From IMG/VR virus record IMGVR_UViG_2541047697_000003: a stretch of DNA of 37,528 nt; one strand, 5' to 3'. The translations under genes and the position numbers were made by a program. Positions 10,145 through 36,080 of the stretch are shown here, one piece after another (position 1 is the stretch's first letter; every line of letters starts with the position of its first letter). Source of the DNA: a virus. Lineage: Duplodnaviria > Heunggongvirae > Uroviricota > Caudoviricetes. The notes under the pieces were generated by a model. That model had not been told where the DNA came from, made no database searches, and was given only the letters and a program-made list of their open reading frames with translations.

Positions 10145-10711
10145 TCAGGGAGATTCATTGCTCTTATTTGCCGGAAATTTTCGATAAATTGTAGAAACGC
10201 CTACATCAAAAATCAGTGCAATACGCTGTCTTGATTCTCCGGCCTTGAGTAAACGCCCAATCTGTGCCCACTGTTCGCTGGTCAACTTAGGACGGCGTCC
10301 ACCTACTCTGCCTTTAACACGAGCTGCAGCCAGCCCTGCCCTGGTACGTTCAACTATCAGTTCGCGTTCCATTTCAGCCAGGGCACCCATGACATGAAAA
10401 AAGAAACGGCCCATTGGGGTACTGGTATCAATACTGTCAGTCAGGTTTCGGAAATTCACGCCACGCTGGCGCAACTCTTCTATCAGCGTAACAAGATGCC
10501 GCATACTGCGCCCTAACCTGTCCAGCTTCCAGACAACCAGAGTGTCTCCTGCCGATAGTGTCCTGAGCAGTTTTTTCAGCCCCGGTCTTTCGGACTTAGT
10601 GCCACTGATTTTGTCCTCAAAAATCCGCTCACATCCCGCGCAGTTCAGTGCATTACGTTGCAAATCGGTGTTCTGGTCATTTGTTGACACGCGTACATAG
10701 CCAATAAGCAT
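10145..10711 (-). CDS. serine-recombinase DNA invertase (Gin/Hin/Cin/Pin family)
   Basis: 188 aa from the ATG at 10711; N-terminus MLIGYVRVSTNDQNTDLQRNAL with the catalytic Ser, and C-terminal HTH; near-identical in pattern to Mu Gin / P1 Cin. Confidence 0.9.
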   Translation of the reverse strand: MLIGYVRVSTNDQNTDLQRNALNCAGCERIFEDKISGTKSERPGLKKLLRTLSAGDTLVVWKLDRLGRSMRHLVTLIEELRQRGVNFRNLTDSIDTSTPMGRFFFHVMGALAEMERELIVERTRAGLAAARVKGRVGGRRPKLTSEQWAQIGRLLKAGESRQRIALIFDVGVSTIYRKFPANKSNESP

Positions 10712-10766
10712 GATCAATCCCCTGAATAAATACCGGGGATGATGCCAGTTAGCCGTTACCTCTGCA

Positions 10767-16193: not shown

Positions 16194-17180
16194 ATGAAAA
16201 ATAAGAACCAGTATCAGGCTTTACTTAGAGGGAAGGTCGAATCGGCGATTGCTCAAGCCAAAAGTGCTGCAGGATTTTCCCACCAGGGTGTTAAGGGAGC
16301 TGTTCTAGAAATATTATTAAGTCAACTATTTCGACCTCTTTTGCCCGCAGATGTTGGCATCGGCACAGGGCAAATCATTGAACAGTATTCAGGAAAGTTA
16401 TCACCTCAAATAGATATTATTATTTACAATAAATCAATACTCCCTCCGATATTAATCGATGGTGCCACAGGGTTATTCCCAATAGAATCAGTTCTATATA
16501 CCATTGAGGTAAAAACCACATTAAGCTCATCGGAACTCAGCTCTGCACACTCAAGTGCAAAAGAACTTAATGAGAAATTCGGTTACTTACCTGGAATAAA
16601 AGATGAATCAGGCAAACTAATCCAACACAAAATAGAAAAACTTCGCTCGGTAATATTTGCTCTAAGTAGCGACTTATCACCAAATGGAATTACTGAAGCC
16701 GAAAGGTATAAAAAAATATACAAAGAAGACTTTCGTTACGTTACAGCAATTTGCGTTGCAGGTCGTGAGTATAGTTATGAAGATCGAGATTGCTGGGTAA
16801 CAATGCGTAATACTCAAGCGTATGATGAAATCCTTGCATTTATTGGAGGCATAACCAATACATACAAAGGTGTTTCAGAAAGTCGTGGGACACCATTGCT
16901 AGGATATTACATTGTTCCAGAGAATGTCGAACTGAGCCTTACAGCTTGTACCACACTCCCGGAATTGCAAGTTAAGTGCACGCAATGCGCTGAAACTAAA
17001 AAAATAATCCCCACCTTTGACAACGATGATGAACTAATACTAAAAAACTACACTCTTTCTGATAACAAGCCTTGTAAATGTGGTGGGGAATTTAAATCAG
17101 AAAAAGGTAATTTCACCATTAAAAATGGTCGACTGAGAGAAATAGAGTACAACGAGCCAGATCGAATTTACAAAGAGTAA
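16194..17180 (+). CDS. AT-rich cargo protein with a PD-(D/E)xK-like motif and a C-terminal Cys4 cluster (function unknown)
   Basis: 328-aa ORF with an ATG start; the only plus-strand gene in the late structural block, in the V-S slot; translation shows ...QIDIIIYNK...YTIEVKTT... and CTQC...CKCGG. Confidence 0.75.
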   Translation: MKNKNQYQALLRGKVESAIAQAKSAAGFSHQGVKGAVLEILLSQLFRPLLPADVGIGTGQIIEQYSGKLSPQIDIIIYNKSILPPILIDGATGLFPIESVLYTIEVKTTLSSSELSSAHSSAKELNEKFGYLPGIKDESGKLIQHKIEKLRSVIFALSSDLSPNGITEAERYKKIYKEDFRYVTAICVAGREYSYEDRDCWVTMRNTQAYDEILAFIGGITNTYKGVSESRGTPLLGYYIVPENVELSLTACTTLPELQVKCTQCAETKKIIPTFDNDDELILKNYTLSDNKPCKCGGEFKSEKGNFTIKNGRLREIEYNEPDRIYKE

Positions 17181-25632: not shown

Positions 25633-26718
25633 CTAACGTTTCAACCAAAGGTCATCTACAGAAAACGAATCGAATTCATTCTCAGATGGAGAATAAATAA
25701 AGCTCACTGTAAAATACGGTCTAACCAAAATCTCTAAAGTCACAACGTCACCATCACCATGAGTAAATGGGAATGCCGAATCTAAATCGCTTTTATTTTC
25801 AATATAATCCAAATAAGGAATATCCACTTCAATAAAAACCCGTCTCAAATTAAAAGAATAGGCAATGTAATATTTATCCGCATCAATTGAAGTGATGCCT
25901 TCAATATAGCCATCCTCGAAATCTTCGATGACATCAACTCTAACATCCAAAACATTCGAAACTCTAGACTCAAAAATATTATTTTCAAGGTATTGACTAA
26001 GCATCATGTGATTAAAACTTGATAAATAATCGATACACTCACCTTCTAGAAACTCCTCGAAATAAGGCTCACTTCTTGCATGATCAAAAGCATGGATACT
26101 CTTATCAATAGATGATGTAACGAAGTCAAATAGCTTCCGATATGGAGTTATTTTTTGTGTTATGCCTAACTCTTCAATATCTCTTAGAAGATCATCATTA
26201 AACGTTGCAGGACCTTTACTGTTGGTAAAAAAGTCTGAGCTATTCTCAGTAATAAATACAAAATCATCATTACCCCCTGATGATTTGATATATTGAAGAA
26301 AAGATAACCAGATCAACGTATCACGGTATCCTTTTTCTTGTTCTGAGAAAGGTTTTATCTTTTCAAGGGCCCTACCAACCACCTTAGCATGTGGAATATC
26401 GTTATAATCTATTAAAATTAAATTATCAACTTCCTTATTTAATATTTCTTTCAAATCATATTGTTCAATACCTAAGTTTTCAATTTTAAAATCTATTGGA
26501 TTCTGATTAAGCTTTTTAATTTTACTAATAATGGAACGCATTTCATTTAATTGATTTTTGAGCTCTCTATTCCTGATATTGTTAGTCTCCTCAATTACTA
26601 AATTTGATAATAACAAGTCGTTACATTCATTATTCAAAAAATGGAAAAGAAGTTTAAAATTAGCATTTTTAGCAAACCAATTATTGTAAAATATATTTGT
26701 ATCCAAAAAAACTTTCAT
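25633..26718 (-). CDS. AT-rich cargo protein with an N-terminal PIN-like motif (function unknown)
   Basis: 361-aa ORF with an ATG start; N-terminus MKVFLDTNIFYNNW resembles the first acidic strand of PIN-fold nucleases; lies between Q and the putative cos. Confidence 0.7.
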   Translation of the reverse strand: MKVFLDTNIFYNNWFAKNANFKLLFHFLNNECNDLLLSNLVIEETNNIRNRELKNQLNEMRSIISKIKKLNQNPIDFKIENLGIEQYDLKEILNKEVDNLILIDYNDIPHAKVVGRALEKIKPFSEQEKGYRDTLIWLSFLQYIKSSGGNDDFVFITENSSDFFTNSKGPATFNDDLLRDIEELGITQKITPYRKLFDFVTSSIDKSIHAFDHARSEPYFEEFLEGECIDYLSSFNHMMLSQYLENNIFESRVSNVLDVRVDVIEDFEDGYIEGITSIDADKYYIAYSFNLRRVFIEVDIPYLDYIENKSDLDSAFPFTHGDGDVVTLEILVRPYFTVSFIYSPSENEFDSFSVDDLWLKR

Positions 26719-27240: not shown

Positions 27241-29133
27241 TTAATTTGTCCCATCACTAAAGAATTTGATTGCGTCAGTTAGTACATAGTCAATGAAAAT
27301 TTTTACGTGAAAGACCTGAAAAACGCTATTTTCTGAGTTTTGAATGAAATCTACAGCTATATCTTTTAGGTTGATCAACCAGTTATATTCTTCAATCAGT
27401 CTAGTTCTGGCATCCGCATCAGAATAACGACTCCGTAAGCTAAATGCCAGTTTCCTCATGATAACTGGATCAAGTTTCCTATAGCTTTCAATGAAAACAT
27501 CAGCAGGAACTAAGTGTAAAAAAGGTACGTCATGAAGATTTAACTGTCTATTATTAGAATGACTCAATTCAGATAACAACGATGATTTTCCCCTTTGTAA
27601 CTCATCTCTGAACTGCAATGCAAATTCCGAAATTGATTCATCAAACCGTTTCTTCCTTGCTATTTTAATATGTTCAATAATGAGCTTAAAGTCATCACTA
27701 TCCCTGTCAAGAAAACTTAAACTACGCCATCCCCTTAATTCGTTATAATGCGTTTGCGCATATTCCTTATGTACATCTTCAGCTCTCAGTCTATTATAAT
27801 AATTATTTATATTCTGTTTTGTCTCATTTATGAGATCATGAACATCATCTGTTGTTAGACCTTCTTTCGCCATTTCCAGCAAAATACTCGCTGTCATCAG
27901 GAGTTCACCTAAGGTAGTGATCTTACCTGAAAATAGGTTATCCTTAGCAATAGCGTACTGCTCATAAAGCATAGTTTCATTTAGTTCTCTATAGTTCCAC
28001 AAACACCTCCATGCTGGTGAATCGCTGCTTCTAAAAAAACGCGTAACATCCAACTGAGCAAGAAGATCACCCGTTACCTTTCCATCACAGATTAGTTCTC
28101 TCCAAGACGCGCCATCCAGTAACTTCTCGGTTAATACAGGAGACGAATATTTCTCGACAATCATGTCATACTTACTTTTGACGCGTTCTTTACCCAAAAA
28201 CATACCATAATTAACATTGCCGATTGAATTGAAATCCTCGTAGCTAAGATTCCCTCCCCGGTACTCCATCGAAAAAATTAACAATTGATGAAAAAACACC
28301 CTTATAAATTCATCGTTACTTAAATATTTATCTCCCAAAAGGGAAATAATTCGTTGTACATCGAGAAAGAACTGCCTCAAGTGTCTTAGATTATTATAAT
28401 TCGCTGACACATAGAGGTCCTCTATTGTCTGCATATCTTCTTTAAATATATTAGCAACATGCAAACTACTAATTACGTTCAAGAAAATCTTACAAGCACT
28501 ATGTAAATCTGACGTTACTTCAAATGTTTTACCTACTAGCTTTTCTTTTGTTCTCATGTATTCATTGCGATATTTCTCATCATCATTATTTATTCGCTTT
28601 TCTCTATTGATTATTTCATCTTCATTGGCAACCAAGATCGCTTTGTATCCGTTTACTTCCACAAAGTGATTTATATATCCAAATAAGATTGGTAAATCTA
28701 CACCAGCTCTCTCGACATCATCAAAGACCAGCACAAAACCATCTGGTTTTCTAGTAAAGTCGCTAAGATTAATGGTGGGAACATTGCTATTGATATCTAC
28801 GTCAGATTTATTATCGCCATTAAGATCGATCTTGAAAGTAGCCTTAAGCGTATTTTTTAGTACATTTGCACCAAAGATAAGGGCTTTGTTTGATAGGACA
28901 GGATGCAATTGACGATAGAACTCATCTTCAATCTGCTCAATAGAGTTGACGCCATACAAGCTCACTTTTAGAAATTTGAACTCTGAATGTTTCTGCTTAT
29001 ATTCTTCAAGAACTCGTTCAATGAACCAAGTTTTACCTGATCCCCAAGCACCTTTAAGCATAATGGCGTATTGAGGTTCAGTTTTAAGGCTAAGGTAATA
29101 TTCTATATAGTCTTTGATGTACGTATTGTGCAT
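27241..29133 (-). CDS. AT-rich cargo P-loop NTPase with a KAP-type Walker A (function unknown)
   Basis: 630 aa from the ATG at 29133 (track start is TTG at 29184); Walker A LKGAWGSGKTWF and Walker B-like FVLVFDDVER; long helical C-terminal region. Confidence 0.7.
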   Translation of the reverse strand: MHNTYIKDYIEYYLSLKTEPQYAIMLKGAWGSGKTWFIERVLEEYKQKHSEFKFLKVSLYGVNSIEQIEDEFYRQLHPVLSNKALIFGANVLKNTLKATFKIDLNGDNKSDVDINSNVPTINLSDFTRKPDGFVLVFDDVERAGVDLPILFGYINHFVEVNGYKAILVANEDEIINREKRINNDDEKYRNEYMRTKEKLVGKTFEVTSDLHSACKIFLNVISSLHVANIFKEDMQTIEDLYVSANYNNLRHLRQFFLDVQRIISLLGDKYLSNDEFIRVFFHQLLIFSMEYRGGNLSYEDFNSIGNVNYGMFLGKERVKSKYDMIVEKYSSPVLTEKLLDGASWRELICDGKVTGDLLAQLDVTRFFRSSDSPAWRCLWNYRELNETMLYEQYAIAKDNLFSGKITTLGELLMTASILLEMAKEGLTTDDVHDLINETKQNINNYYNRLRAEDVHKEYAQTHYNELRGWRSLSFLDRDSDDFKLIIEHIKIARKKRFDESISEFALQFRDELQRGKSSLLSELSHSNNRQLNLHDVPFLHLVPADVFIESYRKLDPVIMRKLAFSLRSRYSDADARTRLIEEYNWLINLKDIAVDFIQNSENSVFQVFHVKIFIDYVLTDAIKFFSDGTN

Positions 29134-29454
29134 TTTTAGTCCATTTTTATAAAATACATAAACATAGATGGTAAGTAGAGCCAAAGGCCAACTATGGAAA
29201 ATTCAATCGGTAGTGTACATTGTAAGGTTATTATTGGTAAATATTATAGGAATACCCATAATCTTACAAAATTCAGATTATCCGTTGCAAATTAGTCTGC
29301 TATTCGTTAATTGACGAAAGATAGCAGAAGAAATGTTCGCTTCTGGCACAAAGCGGACGATCACTTATAAAAATGACCGCCCACCTTACGCCTTATTTCA
29401 CTCATTGCCCAAACTAGCCCCCATCAGAGTGAATCCTCCTGGGGGCAACATTTC

Positions 29455-29688
29455 TTAATGCTGCCAGCTGTCGTCTTCCCACACCTTCTGCATAATTTTC
29501 ATCACTTGTTTTCTTTCTTCGTCCAGTTGCAGTCCGGTAAGTTCCACACCGTGAGAGCTACCTTTGCGGATACGAATTACCGTTTTGGGATACAGGGGGC
29601 GCAGATTGCGGTAAAGCTCGGATTCAAGGGCGTCTAGGATAGACTGGCTAATCTTCTGCTCTTTATCGATCATTATTTCAATGCGCAT
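29455..29688 (-). CDS. DinI-like protein (186 Tum C-terminal-like)
   Basis: 77 aa from the ATG at 29688 with GAGGTGA upstream; MRIEIMIDKEQ...LESELYRNL...IRIRKGSSHGVEL...VWEDDSWQ follows the DinI pattern. Confidence 0.7.
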   Translation of the reverse strand: MRIEIMIDKEQKISQSILDALESELYRNLRPLYPKTVIRIRKGSSHGVELTGLQLDEERKQVMKIMQKVWEDDSWQH

Positions 29689-29698
29689 AAAAGTCACC

Positions 29699-29887
29699 TC
29701 AACTGATGACATCCATTGAGCGGTTGTATTCGTGGGTTCTGATTTTTGCCATGAGTTCATCAGTCAATTCAGAAACCCACTGCAAAGCCAGCCCCTTCTC
29801 TTCATCACTACACTCACTAGCCGCTACAAGCTTAAGAAAAAAATCAATGCGCTGGAGCTTCAAAGACTCCAAAAAATAGTCCTGCAT
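29699..29887 (-). CDS. small SOS-operon protein (possible Tum N-terminal part)
   Basis: 62-aa ORF with an ATG start and strong AGGAGG, directly downstream of the LexA box; different frame from the DinI-like ORF. Confidence 0.45.
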   Translation of the reverse strand: MQDYFLESLKLQRIDFFLKLVAASECSDEEKGLALQWVSELTDELMAKIRTHEYNRSMDVIS

Positions 29888-29928
29888 CTTTCCTCCTATA
29901 ACACCAAAGAAATATTGTATACATAACC

Positions 29929-29947
29929 ACTGTTTATATTTACAGTA
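29929..29947 (-). promoter_or_regulatory. LexA (SOS) box at the promoter of the small-ORF / DinI-like operon
   Basis: aCTGTttatatttACAGta, a perfect CTGT-N8-ACAG with an AT-rich spacer, about 45 bp upstream of the 62-aa ORF start. Confidence 0.7.
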
Positions 29948-30039
29948 TATAATAATCTTACTGATGTAAAACGTTTTTTTACGTTCATCAGCCTGATATG
30001 CTTGGTATTATTAAGAGCACGAATTGTTAACCCGCGTAA

Positions 30040-30396
30040 TTAATACAGGTTCCGCCACTTATCATCTTCCTGCAAACGCTGGTTCCGATAGAAGATACGC
30101 AGGCCTGCTCCTGACGGAATACTGCCGCCGCGAAGGAGTAAATCGACCTCTTTCTCGCTACCATCAAATCCTCTGGACTTCAGTTCATAGGCGAGCTGCT
30201 GTCGCTGATGGTCTGTAATTCGCTGTTTGTAGTCTTTACGCCGTTTCGGTTTCACCAGGCGTAACCTTGCTGCCAGTTCCCGGCGCTCTTTTTTGCTCAT
30301 ACTGTGCAGGTAATCGTGCAACTCCTTGTCATCCATGCGGGTGATATCCGTTCTGGTATCCCCATCAGCTGATTTGTCTTTCCCTTGTTGGTTCAA
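30040..30396 (-). CDS. hypothetical basic protein downstream of A
   Basis: 118-aa ORF from a TTG (internal ATGs at 30336 and 30300); no clear RBS; highly charged. Confidence 0.35.
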
Positions 30397-32480
30397 ATTT
30401 TCAGCAAGGGGACAGTTATTGCCACGAGTCCAAGGGGACAGTTATTGCCACGAGTCCAAGGGGCGCAAGCGCCCTGGTCGGCTGCCGCCTCCTGAACGTC
30501 AACGGCCTTACGAACCATTTTCCACTTCACTGCATGAGTGCAGATTTTGCCCTCTGCAATGGGTGACCAGATGCCATAAATACGAATGCCGTGATCGCCA
30601 TAGGCGGTCGGCTCTTCGTTGATTTCATAAGCGGTTCTGATGAGGTGATATTTACGGGGAACCAGTACGCCGCCCTGCTTCATGATGTAGGTGGCAAAAC
30701 AACCAGCATCAGCTGCAGCCAGAATGGCATCAAGGCGCGGGTTATCCAGTACCGGCGCACCTGCTTTTTTGTCACCCTGTTGCCTTGCCACCTGACCAGC
30801 CAGCAATCGCAGTTCACGGTAAGCCTGACGCCCCGGAATGCCAAAGAAGCGGAATTGCTGAACACGATGCAGAGACGCCCAGGCATTAACGTATTCAGCG
30901 TTATCACGCAGAGATTTACCCGTTTCCTTGCTGATCTCGCCAGCCAGACCACGCCCGTCAATGTTCTTACTGATGTATTTCGCGATGTAGCTTGTCGGCG
31001 TTCCTTTGCGCGGGTTTATCAGCTCAGATTTAAAGCGTGGACCAGTGTTATTACCCAGTTCCTCGCGGTCTTCACGGATGGCAAACTTACGCAACAATGC
31101 AGTAATGGCGCGGCGGTCTTTTTTGCGCATGAAACACAACAGGTGCCAGTGAACTGTACCGTCATGATGCGGCTCAGCCACCCGCACGCCATACCAGCGC
31201 AACCCGGCTTTGTGCATCGCCTTACGAAATGCAGCAAACATGCCGACCAGATAATCGCTGCTTTGTCTTACCGTCGCATTTGTCCAGGTTGGGTTTGGTC
31301 TGCCGTTATTGAGCGTGGAATGGAAACGTGACGGACAGGTAATGGTGTAGAAAACGGCGCAGTCACCGCGCATTTCCGCGATAAGCTCCAGACCTTTAAC
31401 ACAGGCCATCATCTCATTGCGGCGGTGCGCCGGGTTGCTGCTGCTGGCGTTTACCACGTCTTCCATATCCAGCGTGTCGCCCTCTTCGTTCACCAGTTCA
31501 TGAGAACGGAAAAACTCCAGTGACTTGCGGCGCTGCTCACGTTTATGCATCACGGCTTCATAGCTGACATAGGGAGATGCTTTTTTGCTGACCAGGCAGA
31601 CAGCACGCAACTGCTCTTCCCGCCATTCGCAACGCATTTTCCATAATTTCCGGTACCACCAGTCGGCGCACAACATACGCGCCAGCGAACCCGGAATGAG
31701 TTCATAGGGCACGGGTTTACGGCGGTTTCTTTTCCGACGGAGTTGCTCAAACGCAGGCGGGATGACATCCAGACGCAGGGTTTCCGCTGCCACCTTTTCC
31801 CATGTCTTGCGGATTTCTTCTGGCTTAACGTCATCGGTGGCATACAAATCACCACAAGCTGCATCAAGGCACATGCTCATATGCGCAGCGACAAGGGTAG
31901 ACAGGCGTTTCACCTGATCCTGACTCATTTCAGGCAGAATCAGCAGGCCGTCCAGCCCTACATGGCTTGCCATAAAACGAAAAGATGCAGATAGCTGGCT
32001 GTCGCGTACATGCTCCAGTCGTTCCAGACATGGCTTAATCGTCTCACGTAAATAGCGGGAATAAGCCTTTGGCCTGCCCAGGCTGTTAAAGTATTCAATA
32101 CGTTGCATCAGCGGCTTGCTGATATGGGAGGGCTGGGCGCTGACGTCTGCCAGAATGACCATGTCCGGGTTAAAACGCTGCTGCTCATGCGCCAACTTTG
32201 CCCGGCTAATGAGCTTATCCTGCTCTATTTCGCGTTGGACAGGATCACGGGATTCATTAAAGAAATAACGCTCCCAGACCTGATCACTCAGTGCCTCGCG
32301 GCGCAGTTGTTCCTGCTCGTTATCGGCAGCGTACAGAGTGATCAGGTTTGAAAGCGCAGAAACCGGCGCAACTTCCGCCGGGTCCAGATAAGGGTTAATG
32401 GCCTTTTTCGGGCTGTTCCATGAGAACGATGCGGCAGCCTCGTTAAAGCCGCAGCAGTTGCTCATATCGGCATGGCTCAT
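30393..32480 (-). CDS. A: replication initiation endonuclease gpA-like (rolling-circle, HUH-Y family)
   Basis: 695-aa ORF; HWHLL (HUH-like) and SYIAKYISK tyrosine motifs; ATG overlaps the dam stop. Confidence 0.9.
30405..30474. repeat. tandem direct repeat (2 x 26 bp plus a partial third copy) followed by a 14-bp palindrome, inside the 3' end of gene A
   Basis: caaggggacagttattgccacgagtc at 30405-30430 and 30431-30456, then caagggg; then gggcgc-aa-gcgccc at 30461-30474. Confidence 0.8.
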
Positions 32481-35385: not shown

Positions 35386-35510
35386 GATGCAACATTCCTC
35401 GTTTAATGATGATTAATCAGGACGAATACGGATCGTTTGTATTTTGTGAACACCATAAACATACGATCGCACGGTGAAATCGTCAAGACAAAAGTTCACT
35501 TGGAGTGACC
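35386..35510. promoter_or_regulatory. immunity switch region (divergent/face-to-face early and repressor promoters with operator-like inverted repeats)
   Basis: 125-bp intergenic between apl and cI; GTGAAC (35446-35451) and GTTCAC (35494-35499) inverted, with a GTGAAA copy between them. Confidence 0.45.
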
Positions 35511-36080
35511 ATGAATTTGGAGAAAGGCGGACGAGGCGCTATAGAGCGCATGGTAGAAGCTTATGGATTCAAGACTCGACAGGCGTTGTGCGATCATTTA
35601 GGAATCTCTAAAAGTACACTCGCCACACGCTACATGCGTGACTCATTCCCAGCAGAATGGGTAATCCAGTGCGCCCTTGAAACAGGCACCTCGCTTAATT
35701 GGCTCACAACCGGGCATGGTTCAAAGCAAACTTCAGGTAATACAAATACTATGGAAGTTGCTAAATATGTATTATCTGATGGGGCCTTGTGTGAAGACGG
35801 TTTTTATATTTTCGATAGAGAATTTCTACCGTCGGCATACAAGAATCTTTTTGTAATCACAGATAATAATTCTGAATTTATTTGTGATAAGGAATTTGAT
35901 GATATACGTGATGGTAAATGGGTAATAAGTATTGATGGCGAAATAACGATCCGTGACATTACTCGTTTACCCGGTGGAAGAATCTTCGTCGAGGGTGGAA
36001 ACAGAGCCTTCGAATGCAAGATAGAAGACATTGAAATAATTGGTAAAATTATAAGTTTAACAGTCAAGTATGTTAAATAG
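35511..36080 (+). CDS. cI: CI-like immunity repressor (186 CI family)
   Basis: 189 aa from the ATG at 35511 with GGAG upstream; N-terminal HTH (AYGFKTRQALCDHLGISKSTLATRY) and a C-terminal oligomerisation domain; resembles 186 CI. Confidence 0.8.
   Translation: MNLEKGGRGAIERMVEAYGFKTRQALCDHLGISKSTLATRYMRDSFPAEWVIQCALETGTSLNWLTTGHGSKQTSGNTNTMEVAKYVLSDGALCEDGFYIFDREFLPSAYKNLFVITDNNSEFICDKEFDDIRDGKWVISIDGEITIRDITRLPGGRIFVEGGNRAFECKIEDIEIIGKIISLTVKYVK

Follow-up and report, generated by a model that had tools for sequence, protein, structure and literature searches.

The minus-strand region at positions 29455-29970 of the window (the whole 37,528-nt stretch of viral DNA analysed here, IMG/VR record IMGVR_UViG_2541047697_000003) is very probably the SOS operon of a Fels-2/DuoHS-type, 186-related P2-family prophage of Escherichia coli. 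Sequence features, homology, conservation and purifying selection were established directly in our analysis of the window. The elements listed in an initial annotation of this DNA, a LexA box, a strong ribosome-binding site, a 62-amino-acid open reading frame (ORF) and then a 77-amino-acid DinI-like ORF, were all found on the minus strand.

The system is already known, as it has been described in PSP3, Fels-2 and DuoHS and tested genetically in a near-identical copy, and the operon DNA matches 1,256 of 5,426 complete E. coli genomes (about 20%, or about one in five). Because it is already described, genetically tested and frequent in E. coli, it adds no new biology. What modest interest is new concerns this copy alone: in its colicin-type double LexA operator the second box is weakened, and a duplication that shifts the reading frame lies over its predicted replication origin. 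The operon marks the prophage as belonging to the SOS-inducible 186/Fels-2 type as opposed to the non-inducible P2 type, a distinction of importance when phage release and gene transfer are to be predicted in the presence of DNA-damaging antibiotics.

SOS promoter and double LexA operator

The operon is preceded by a putative SOS promoter, the counterpart of p95 of phage 186. Its predicted −35 hexamer, TTTACA (29965-29970, minus strand), was read from the sequence and is identical in all Fels-2-type relatives compared. A spacer of 17 nt separates it from the putative −10 hexamer, TACTGT (29942-29947, minus strand), which lies within the first of two LexA boxes. We assigned this −10 by analogy with p95, as the phage 186 record annotates TACTGT as the p95 −10 in the same arrangement, inside the LexA site (L001 2545-2550). 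The promoter was not called by a sigma-70 and terminator consensus scan, because its −10 matches at only three of six positions; the terminator calls of that scan were unconvincing.

The textbook SOS box (CTGT-N8-ACAG) noted in the initial annotation is present. Its core, CTGTAAATATAAACAG, is the single occurrence of this 16-mer pattern in the window (29930-29945, minus strand) and overlaps the promoter −10. Taken alone, the 16-mer is weak evidence, because 0.44 occurrences are expected by chance and at least one was seen in 37 of 100 shuffles. The 20-mer at 29928-29947, which reads TACTGTAAATATAAACAGTG on the minus strand, shares 17 of its 20 letters with the LexA consensus TACTGTATATATATACAGTA, a match that occurred in none of the 100 shuffles, and each of the 11 Fels-2-type relatives compared has box 1 conserved at the corresponding position. 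It lies upstream of the 62-amino-acid ORF, as had been described, although the distance from the end of the box to the ATG at 29887 is 42 nt rather than about 45 bp. As judged from the letters, the promoter is overlapped by a predicted LexA operator, the arrangement expected of a Tum or TumA operon.

A second LexA box, missed by the initial annotation, overlaps the first by one base (29915-29930; GTGGTTATGTATACAA on the minus strand). It is degenerate: its 3′ half reads ACAA and not ACAG owing to a private G-to-A change at 29915, whereas all 11 Fels-2-type relatives examined read ...TACAGT here, and their box 2 is identical or nearly identical to that of colicin operators. We therefore describe the predicted operator as a colicin-type double LexA operator with a degenerate second box. 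Such an operator consists of two 16-mers that share one base and have an intact 3′ CAG; in the window, box 1 is perfect, whereas the conserved G of box 2 is an A. Because of this loss, double LexA occupancy is uncertain in the window, and the tightness of regulation may differ from that of the relatives. The exact box 1 combined with the box 2 variant of the window had no match in a scan of representative genomes; a degenerate version of the double-box pattern found three loci in these genomes, all with box 2 intact.

A TumA-like antirepressor gene

The first gene of the operon, tumA-like (29699-29887, minus strand, ending in TGA), encodes a 62-amino-acid putative antirepressor that appears homologous to PSP3 TumA and to the N-terminal half of 186 Tum. 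Its ribosome-binding site, AGGAGG (29892-29897, minus strand), was read from the sequence and is shared by relatives; 4 nt separate it from the ATG. The protein is 98% identical to STM2728 of Fels-2 and identical at 61 of 62 positions to ECHS_RS04495 of E. coli HS.

Homology to Tum rests on profiles and context. The 62-amino-acid ORF matches the PHROG profiles phrog_698 (3.6e-38), phrog_8554 (2.4e-8) and phrog_1993 (2.2e-3). Residues about 4-61 of 186 Tum match the same three profiles (phrog_698 at 2.4e-5 and 5.9e-6), and phrog_1993 is the family of PSP3 TumA, which matches it at 2.7e-32. An hhalign comparison of the window-type family with the Tum-type family placed columns 4-43 on columns 4-43 with E=3.5e-4, at a probability of only 37%, and the alignment of the ORF with the N-terminal half of Tum is free of gaps. 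Homology to about residues 4-44 of Tum is thus supported, at the profile level only. The location is also that of a Tum or TumA gene: with the end of gene A at 30040 and the start of the operon at about 29970, the operon follows gene A immediately, and a 186-type CI/Apl/CII region is present. Pairwise BLASTP of the ORF yielded zero alignments with 186 Tum and with PSP3 TumA. PSP3 TumA compared with 186 Tum was also negative, so BLASTP is too weak for such short proteins, and profiles were used instead.

One alternative is that the 62-amino-acid ORF is unrelated to Tum or spurious, and that the LexA-controlled unit is a DinI-like moron, tuning the SOS response of the host without taking part in induction. 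The ORF has no Pfam family and no sequence match in the PDB, and lacks pairwise BLAST similarity to Tum. Its AF2 model is a helical hairpin (pLDDT 89.6), for which a Foldseek search of the PDB returned only generic helical hairpins, none with E<0.001; some records, moreover, name it ‘levan regulatory protein’. We nevertheless regard this alternative as highly improbable. The profiles tie the ORF to the Tum N terminus and to PSP3 TumA, and its dN/dS of 0.04-0.09 marks it as a real protein. Furthermore, in ESSI-2-type phages a 62-aa-type gene follows a LexA box although a DinI gene is absent, and in E. coli HS induction is lost when the 98%-identical orthologue is deleted. The ‘levan regulatory protein’ label we treat as an annotation artefact, because family evidence for the name is absent.

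A DinI-like gene

The second gene, tumB-like (29455-29688, minus strand), encodes a 77-amino-acid protein that is a predicted homologue of PSP3 TumB and of the C-terminal half of 186 Tum; its ribosome-binding site, GAGGTG (29700-29695, minus strand), overlaps the tumA stop codon. The ORF matches the Pfam DinI family (PF06183) with E=3e-21 (3.3e-21; 75.8 bits against a cut-off of 24.2 bits) over model positions 1-62 of 63, and matches the E. coli DinI structure 1GHH over residues 1-75 (E=2.6e-5). It belongs to phrog_189, retains the C-terminal WEDDSW motif and has a dN/dS of 0.08-0.33. On this sequence evidence it is a member of the DinI family. Alignment to 186 Tum, which the initial annotation had proposed, came out as anticipated, with the 62-amino-acid ORF falling on the N-terminal half by profiles and the 77-amino-acid ORF on residues 71-146 at 41% identity (E=1e-24). 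By analogy, the 77-amino-acid protein would bind RecA filaments and modulate their coprotease activity, and the 186 record carries the note ‘modulates SOS induction’.

The longest ORF at this locus is 101 amino acids in length and begins at an ATG at 29760. That start is unlikely, because the records for vB_EcoM-813R9, RE-2010, Fels-2, SopEphi, MLG42, E. coli H22, HS and GW-AmxH19 all annotate a 234-nt coding sequence.

Two cistrons and not a broken tum

The initial annotation left undecided whether the two ORFs form a genuine two-gene operon or a frameshifted Tum; the junctions of relatives, the dN/dS values and the tumA and tumB genes of PSP3 uphold the operon and not the frameshift. In the window, the TGA of the first gene (29701-29699) is followed by a gap of 10 nt, not the 11 bp previously reported, and then by the ATG at 29688 in a different frame. 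No single frame without a stop spans the two, and the architecture is that of a split TumA/TumB.

The frameshift reading holds that the ORFs were once one 186-type tum, since disrupted by a frameshift or nonsense change to give a pseudogene, or that a sequencing error near 29690-29760 splits them. It draws on the fact that Tum of phage 186 is one polypeptide of 146 amino acids, whereas the window ORFs lie in different frames. However, the identical junction and split recur in every Fels-2-type relative whose junction was read, and the same operon DNA is present in the 1,256 E. coli genomes noted above. Across relatives, the intercistronic gap is 10, 11 or 12 nt, and a stop codon, a ribosome-binding site and an ATG are always present; since these gaps correspond to frame offsets of 1, 2 and 0, all three occur. 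In the more distant relatives the gap is 11 or 12 nt, the stop codons differ (TAA and TAG) and each ORF has a ribosome-binding site and an ATG of its own; in one of them, both ORFs share a frame.

Both ORFs are also under strong purifying selection, with dN/dS of about 0.05-0.1 at dS of about 0.8-1.4 against divergent relatives. The PSP3 record contains the same pair, named tumA (‘UV induction of prophage’) and tumB, and a split of tum in two in both Fels-2 and PSP3 is described by Lemire et al. 2011 (PMC3121763). In addition, ESSI-2-type phages have the small gene and not the DinI gene, and many homologues of the 186-type Tum N terminus are stand-alone proteins of 63-78 amino acids. The frameshifted-Tum reading is effectively refuted, and we give it almost no credence.

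Proposed mechanism, immunity region and downstream elements

We propose that in an undamaged cell LexA would occupy the operator over the −10 (TACTGT) and the start region, blocking RNA polymerase. DNA damage would activate RecA, LexA would cleave itself and the operon would be transcribed. The TumA-type helical-hairpin protein would then bind its cognate CI and block operator binding, such that CI would no longer hold the lytic promoter and, neutralized without cleavage, would allow the prophage to enter lytic development. Direct binding to CI is inferred from phage 186, in which Tum binds CI and prevents its binding to operators (Shearwin et al. 1998, as summarized in PMC3121763). The free TumB-type DinI-like protein, made from its own ribosome-binding site, probably adjusts the activity of RecA filaments and thereby how strong or long-lasting the SOS signal is, a role suggested by E. 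coli DinI and by the notes in the 186 record.

The presumed target of the antirepressor is the CI immunity repressor (35505-36080, plus strand), which is recognized by homology (phrog_4, transcriptional repressor) and probably starts at 35511, by comparison with E. coli HS. CI is identical to DuoHS CI at 188 of 189 positions (99%) and 33% identical to 186 CI (E=1e-37), and the Apl-like protein matches that of DuoHS at 73 of 73. The immunity region as a whole (CI, Apl-like gene, CII and Fil) is 186-like, and the inference of an inducible prophage, unlike P2, therefore fits. The prophage is integrated beside ybjL in an E. coli chromosome; the ogr-ybjL-ybjM junction of DuoHS is present in the window as well.

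RNA folding predicts two hairpins 3′ of the DinI-like stop (29345-29445, minus strand; about 29445-29418 and 29392-29345), with a z-score of −5.6. A 22-bp stem depends on G-U pairs and is thus specific to the minus-strand RNA. These hairpins, which have no clear U tract, may represent a partial terminator or the 3′ end of the transcript, placed like t95a of phage 186; an Rfam search of 29100-30100 found no credible family. Under a reading that we consider unlikely, set out below, transcription of the operon may pass these two non-canonical hairpins into a PDC-S49 KAP-family NTPase gene (27241-29184), a candidate defence gene. This gene occupies the place of 186 orf97, the infection-blocking distal gene of the 186 SOS operon.

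Gene A duplication and the fate of this copy

Tandem Repeats Finder identified a 26-nt period within gene A (2.3 copies, 100% match, 30405-30463). Gene A of the window is split into ORFs of 695 and 118 amino acids in different frames, whereas Fels-2, vB_EcoM-813R9, E. coli H22 and GW-AmxH19 have one copy of the 26 bp and a single A ORF of about 804 amino acids. The duplication causes a frameshift that costs the protein its conserved C-terminal ~120 residues. Alignment of the A proteins extends to about residue 681 in the window and residue 617 in phage 186. A 13-letter motif in the 118-amino-acid ORF resembles LSRRERRELTNRLRK, residues 633-647 of 186 A, and conservation of the missing part reaches as far as phage 186. 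The ori of the 186 record lies at the position aligned with the duplication, and the predicted origin nick region is duplicated in the window.

Because gene A is frameshifted by a duplication over the predicted origin, productive induction is doubtful. We slightly favour the reading that the switch is intact but that this copy cannot complete induction, the early genes being derepressed without productive replication. The single repeat copy in the four relatives named above, the conservation of the lost C-terminal part and the position of the duplication at the predicted ori all favour it, and the private changes in the DinI-like ORF and in box 2 also fit relaxed selection. However, the duplication may have arisen artificially during sequencing or assembly, and the truncated A protein might retain activity. 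Ready reversion by slippage could also occur, since a 7-nt direct repeat, CCCCTTG, flanks the duplication. A search of E. coli genomes across this region merges overlapping pieces, and so genomes with the duplicated and the single-copy form are indistinguishable in it; the six matches listed span 65 nt, which corresponds to a single copy.

The designation of this DNA as a SOS-inducible prophage, unlike P2, accordingly stands for the switch, which is intact, sits beside 186-like immunity and has a 97%-identical counterpart that is needed in E. coli HS, but phage production is doubtful because gene A is broken. An intact switch in a dead phage qualifies that designation without contradicting the identity of the operon. 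Together, the box 2 change and the gene A duplication suggest a prophage that is becoming defective. A further reading, which we consider unlikely, is that this copy has become an SOS-triggered host module in a replication-dead prophage, with the operon perhaps reading into the defence gene and linking DNA damage to anti-phage or abortive functions. Both tumA and the DinI-like gene are intact despite the disrupted gene A and predicted origin and the weakened box 2.

Relationship to known systems

The closest relative is DuoHS of E. coli HS. The operon DNA is 97% identical, and the promoter and LexA box 1 are identical to those of the window. The tum gene of DuoHS is ECHS_RS04495, which corresponds to the 62-amino-acid ORF and is the gene targeted by the ‘tum’ deletion (Nat Microbiol 2025, PMC12055606), and its DinI-like gene is ECHS_RS04500. 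After mitomycin C, lysis and virions are absent in E. coli HS with a tum deletion or a lexA(Ind-) allele (PMC12055606), and the requirement for tum and for cleavable LexA has thus been shown by others on a 97%-identical operon. Relative to DuoHS, the window has ACAA rather than ACAG in box 2, three private amino-acid changes in the DinI-like protein, different cargo genes downstream and the frameshifting 26-bp duplication in gene A.

Fels-2 (Felsduovirus) has the same two-gene layout (STM2728/STM2726.1), 10-nt junction and double LexA operator. It differs from the window in its Salmonella host, its intact box 2 (GTGGTTATATGTACAG), its single gene A ORF and its downstream cargo; its split tum is the subject of a discussion by Bunny et al. 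2002, cited by Lemire et al. 2011 (PMC3121763). On plasmid pCKO3, the second of the boxes preceding a colicin-like bacteriocin gene has the same sequence as the Fels-2 box 2, and the Fels-2 tum operator is 92.3% identical over 39 nt (36/39) to plasmid colicin and cloacin operators, with more than 1,000 plasmids matched. The colicin and cloacin double SOS boxes likewise consist of two 16-mers with one shared base, and such double boxes bind two LexA dimers, so that a lethal product is not made at the wrong time (Lu and Chak 1996, cited in PMC2994835). The similarity is confined to the operator, which drives a bacteriocin in one case and a phage antirepressor in the other. One possibility, which we regard as unlikely, is that the operator of the Fels-2-type tum promoter is a regulatory cassette that has passed between P2-family phages and bacteriocin operons.

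In PSP3 (NC_005340), tumA (annotated ‘similar to 5' end 186 tum; UV induction of prophage’) and then a 77-amino-acid DinI-like gene lie directly after gene A behind a LexA box, as in the window. PSP3 TumA is of the 186-type subfamily (phrog_1993), with no pairwise BLAST similarity to the window ORF, and, unlike the window, PSP3 has a single LexA box and an intercistronic gap of 3 nt. The p95 operon of phage 186 resembles that of the window in its LexA-repressed promoter, with the −10 TACTGT inside the LexA site, and in its position after gene A. 186 Tum combines an N-terminal antirepressor part and a C-terminal DinI-like part, as do the two window ORFs, and an internal GTG start gives a free DinI-like product in addition; next come a partial terminator and then orf97, which blocks 186 infection. 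It differs in that Tum is one 146-amino-acid polypeptide with a linker of about 25 residues behind a single LexA box. The window ORF is only about 20% identical to the N-terminal part of Tum, and the CI proteins are only 33% identical.

More distantly, the Gifsy dinI-gfoA/gftA operons are LexA-controlled and encode a small antirepressor and a DinI homologue, and the repressor is inactivated by antirepressor binding without cleavage (both as described in Lemire et al. 2011, PMC3121763). Their gene order is the reverse of that in the window, with dinI in front; they belong to lambdoid phages, and neither their antirepressors nor their repressors are related to those of the window.

Putative SOS promoter and operon layout

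On the minus strand, a putative −35 element (TTTACA, 29970-29965) and a putative −10 element (TACTGT, 29947-29942), both read from the sequence and separated by a 17-nt spacer, precede a 62-aa ORF (ATG at 29887, TGA at 29699) and a 77-aa ORF (29688-29455). The −10 element forms the left half of a LexA box, box 1 (CTGTAAATATAAACAG, 29945-29930), of the form CTGT-N8-ACAG. Taken by itself, this bare motif is weak evidence: it is expected 0.44 times per window by chance and was present in 37 of 100 shuffles. The 20-mer around box 1 nevertheless agrees with that consensus, the one for LexA, in 17 of its 20 bases; none of 100 shuffles contained a match as good. The LexA operator is conserved and overlaps the −10 element in the way annotated for p95, the SOS promoter of coliphage 186. 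AGGAGG (29897-29892) provides a ribosome-binding site for the 62-aa ORF, and GAGGTG, overlapping the stop codon of that ORF, lies before the 77-aa ORF, which is in a different frame. The initial annotation had described this arrangement of LexA box, small ORF and DinI-like ORF, and it is borne out, with slightly shorter distances: 42 nt rather than about 45 from box to ATG, and 10 nt rather than 11 between the ORFs. DNA of the operon occurs in 1,256 of 5,426 complete Escherichia coli genomes (the promoter in 1,066) and in numerous records of Klebsiella, Salmonella and Yersinia phages.

Two genes related to the halves of 186 Tum

The product of the 77-aa ORF clearly belongs to the DinI family (Pfam PF06183, E = 3e-21; E. 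coli DinI structure 1GHH, E = 2.6e-5) and aligns to residues 71-146 of the 186 antirepressor Tum with 41% identity (E = 1e-24). BLASTP yields no alignment between the 62-aa ORF and Tum, and the predicted correspondence with the N-terminal half emerged from profiles. The 62-aa protein belongs to phrog_698 (3.6e-38), and also matches phrog_8554 and phrog_1993; all three families recur among the matches of the first 70 residues of Tum (phrog_1993, 1.5e-23; phrog_8554, 3.4e-12; phrog_698, 5.9e-6), and TumA of phage PSP3 is a member of phrog_1993 (2.7e-32). Profile-profile comparison, with 120 homologues on each side, placed columns 4-43 on columns 4-43 (E = 3.5e-4), and residues 1-48 align without gaps in a joint alignment. 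AlphaFold2 confidently models the protein as a two-helix hairpin (pLDDT 89.6), for which a structure search returned no informative neighbours.

Such a pair could be a genuine two-gene operon or a tum gene broken by a frameshift, and the initial annotation had left both open. Only the two-gene reading stands. At each of the 10 loci compared, a stop codon, a ribosome-binding site and an ATG mark the junction between the ORFs; they are 10, 11 or 12 nt apart, giving a frame offset of 1, 2 or 0, and the upstream stop codon varies among TGA, TAA and TAG. Both ORFs have dN/dS of 0.05-0.10 against divergent relatives (dS ~0.8-1.4). The PSP3 record names the equivalent genes tumA (‘similar to 5' end 186 tum; UV induction of prophage’) and tumB, and tum has been reported as split into two halves in Fels-2 and PSP3, with the PSP3 antirepressor encoded upstream and the DinI homologue downstream (Lemire et al. 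2011, PMC3121763). Homologues of the 186 Tum N terminus are in many cases encoded on their own, as proteins of 63-78 aa. In ESSI-2-type phages, which belong to the P2 family, a LexA box precedes the small gene and a DinI gene is missing altogether (Escherichia phage ESSI2_ev015, locus L008, 1501-1713; Cronobacter phage ESSI-2, locus L009, 1501-1668, unannotated); therefore, the antirepressor module exists without a DinI partner.

A variant double LexA operator

In relatives including Fels-2, SopEphi, RE-2010, MLG42 and DuoHS, a second LexA-like box (box 2) shares one base with box 1 (GTGGTTAT..GTACAG). This double operator was not noticed in the initial annotation. Bacteriocin promoters on over 1,000 small plasmids of the Col type match the 42-nt Fels-2 operator, and the best of the Col-type matches listed are 92.3% identical to it over 39 nt; in plasmid pCKO3, TATACTGTATATAAAACCAGTGGTTATATGTACAGTA lies immediately upstream of a colicin-like bacteriocin gene. 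Overlapping boxes of this kind are reported to bind two LexA dimers and to guard against untimely synthesis of a lethal product (PMC2994835). The colicin-type box 2 of the window (29915-29930) reads GTGGTTATGTATACAA, with the conserved G at 29915 replaced by A (ACAG to ACAA), a change that all 11 Fels-2-type relatives inspected lack. The window promoter has no full-length 100% match among the 5,426 E. coli genomes searched. The substitution may loosen repression.

A duplication in replication gene A

Upstream of the operon, gene A (30040-32480, minus strand) is frameshifted into ORFs of 695 and 118 aa in different frames because 26 bp (CCCCTTGGACTCGTGGCAATAACTGT on the minus strand) are perfectly duplicated in tandem at 30405-30463. 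The duplication is absent from the four relatives compared (Fels-2, vB_EcoM-813R9, E. coli H22 and GW-AmxH19), each of which has a single gene A ORF of ~804 aa. The C terminus lost from the window protein is conserved in 186 A. Aligned with 186, the duplicated unit falls where the record of that phage places the replication origin, so the window has two copies of the predicted nick region. CCCCTTG, a direct repeat of 7 nt, flanks the unit and suggests that slippage produced the duplication. Should the duplication be genuine, firing of the switch may not lead to productive replication; should it be an artefact of assembly, the prophage can probably be induced in full, like DuoHS. The window DinI-like protein also has three private residues relative to nine Fels-2-type relatives: I17 (T), H45 (N) and Q76 (L). 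Relaxed selection on this copy may account for these residues, along with the altered box 2 and the frameshift in gene A.

Cargo genes downstream of the operon

Similarity to phage records stops at the stop codon of the DinI-like gene. Two RNA hairpins follow (fold z = −5.6 for a 141-nt stretch), neither with a clear U tract. One, of 22 bp (29345-29392), depends on G-U pairs and is therefore confined to RNA of the minus strand; it lacks a U tract, matches no Rfam family, and may be a transcript 3' end or a stabiliser. A KAP-family P-loop NTPase (27241-29184; PF07693; PADLOC candidate defence family PDC-S49, E = 9e-157) is encoded on the same strand, about 270-320 nt beyond the DinI-like gene. 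It fills a cargo slot of variable content that separates the SOS operon from the portal gene, and its gene follows the operon in ~300 complete E. coli genomes. Between it and the portal gene lies a second cargo gene (25633-26718, minus strand), whose 361-aa product has a PIN_12 domain (PF16289, E = 2e-27) at the N terminus and gave no match in PHROG or PADLOC searches. The equivalent slot in 186 holds orf97, which blocks 186 infection according to the 186 record and into which the SOS operon reads via a partial terminator; read-through may also occur in the window.

Elsewhere, a 328-aa ORF (16194-17180, plus strand) with DUF6602 (PF20247) and PADLOC PD-DExK/NucC-like nuclease matches (E = 7e-32) is probably a moron or defence gene; its strand is opposite to that of the surrounding late genes. 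A resolvase/invertase-family recombinase (10145-10717, minus strand; PF00239 and HTH_7) adjoins the tail-fibre genes and is presumably a Cin/Gin-type invertase that switches them.

Comparison with DuoHS, Fels-2 and 186

At its left end, the window consists of E. coli ybjM-ybjL DNA (99.9% identity), and DuoHS, a prophage of E. coli HS, has the same ogr-ybjL-ybjM junction. Their SOS operons are 97% identical in DNA, and the two share 188 of 189 residues of the immunity repressor CI, 73 of 73 of the Apl-like protein and 61 of 62 of the small protein, which is also 98% identical to STM2728 of Fels-2. In DuoHS, deletion of ‘tum’ (ECHS_RS04495) or lexA(Ind−) abolished lysis and virion production after mitomycin C (Phollow study, Nat Microbiol 2025, PMC12055606). 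The deleted gene is the 62-aa ORF; the DinI-like gene is ECHS_RS04500. Induction thus needs both cleavable LexA and the 62-aa gene, as shown by others on a near-identical copy. Together with the Tum homology, these genetics support the earlier proposal of SOS control through a Tum-type antirepressor.

Both cistrons of the operon are conserved and under selection, and the window has an immunity region of the 186 type (CI/Apl/CII). We hypothesize, from 186, that the 62-aa protein binds CI and keeps it off its operators, leaving it uncleaved. The free DinI-like protein would act on RecA filaments and modulate the SOS signal, as E. coli DinI and notes in the 186 record suggest; in 186, too, a free DinI-like product arises, by initiation at an internal GTG.

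Interest in follow-up is limited to two points specific to this copy, the box 2 variant and the gene A duplication. The operon itself is a TumA/TumB-type SOS operon of Fels-2/DuoHS-like phages and holds nothing new: given the DuoHS tum genetics, the Fels-2 match and the 1,256 E. coli genomes that carry it, the system is already known, named, genetically tested and common.
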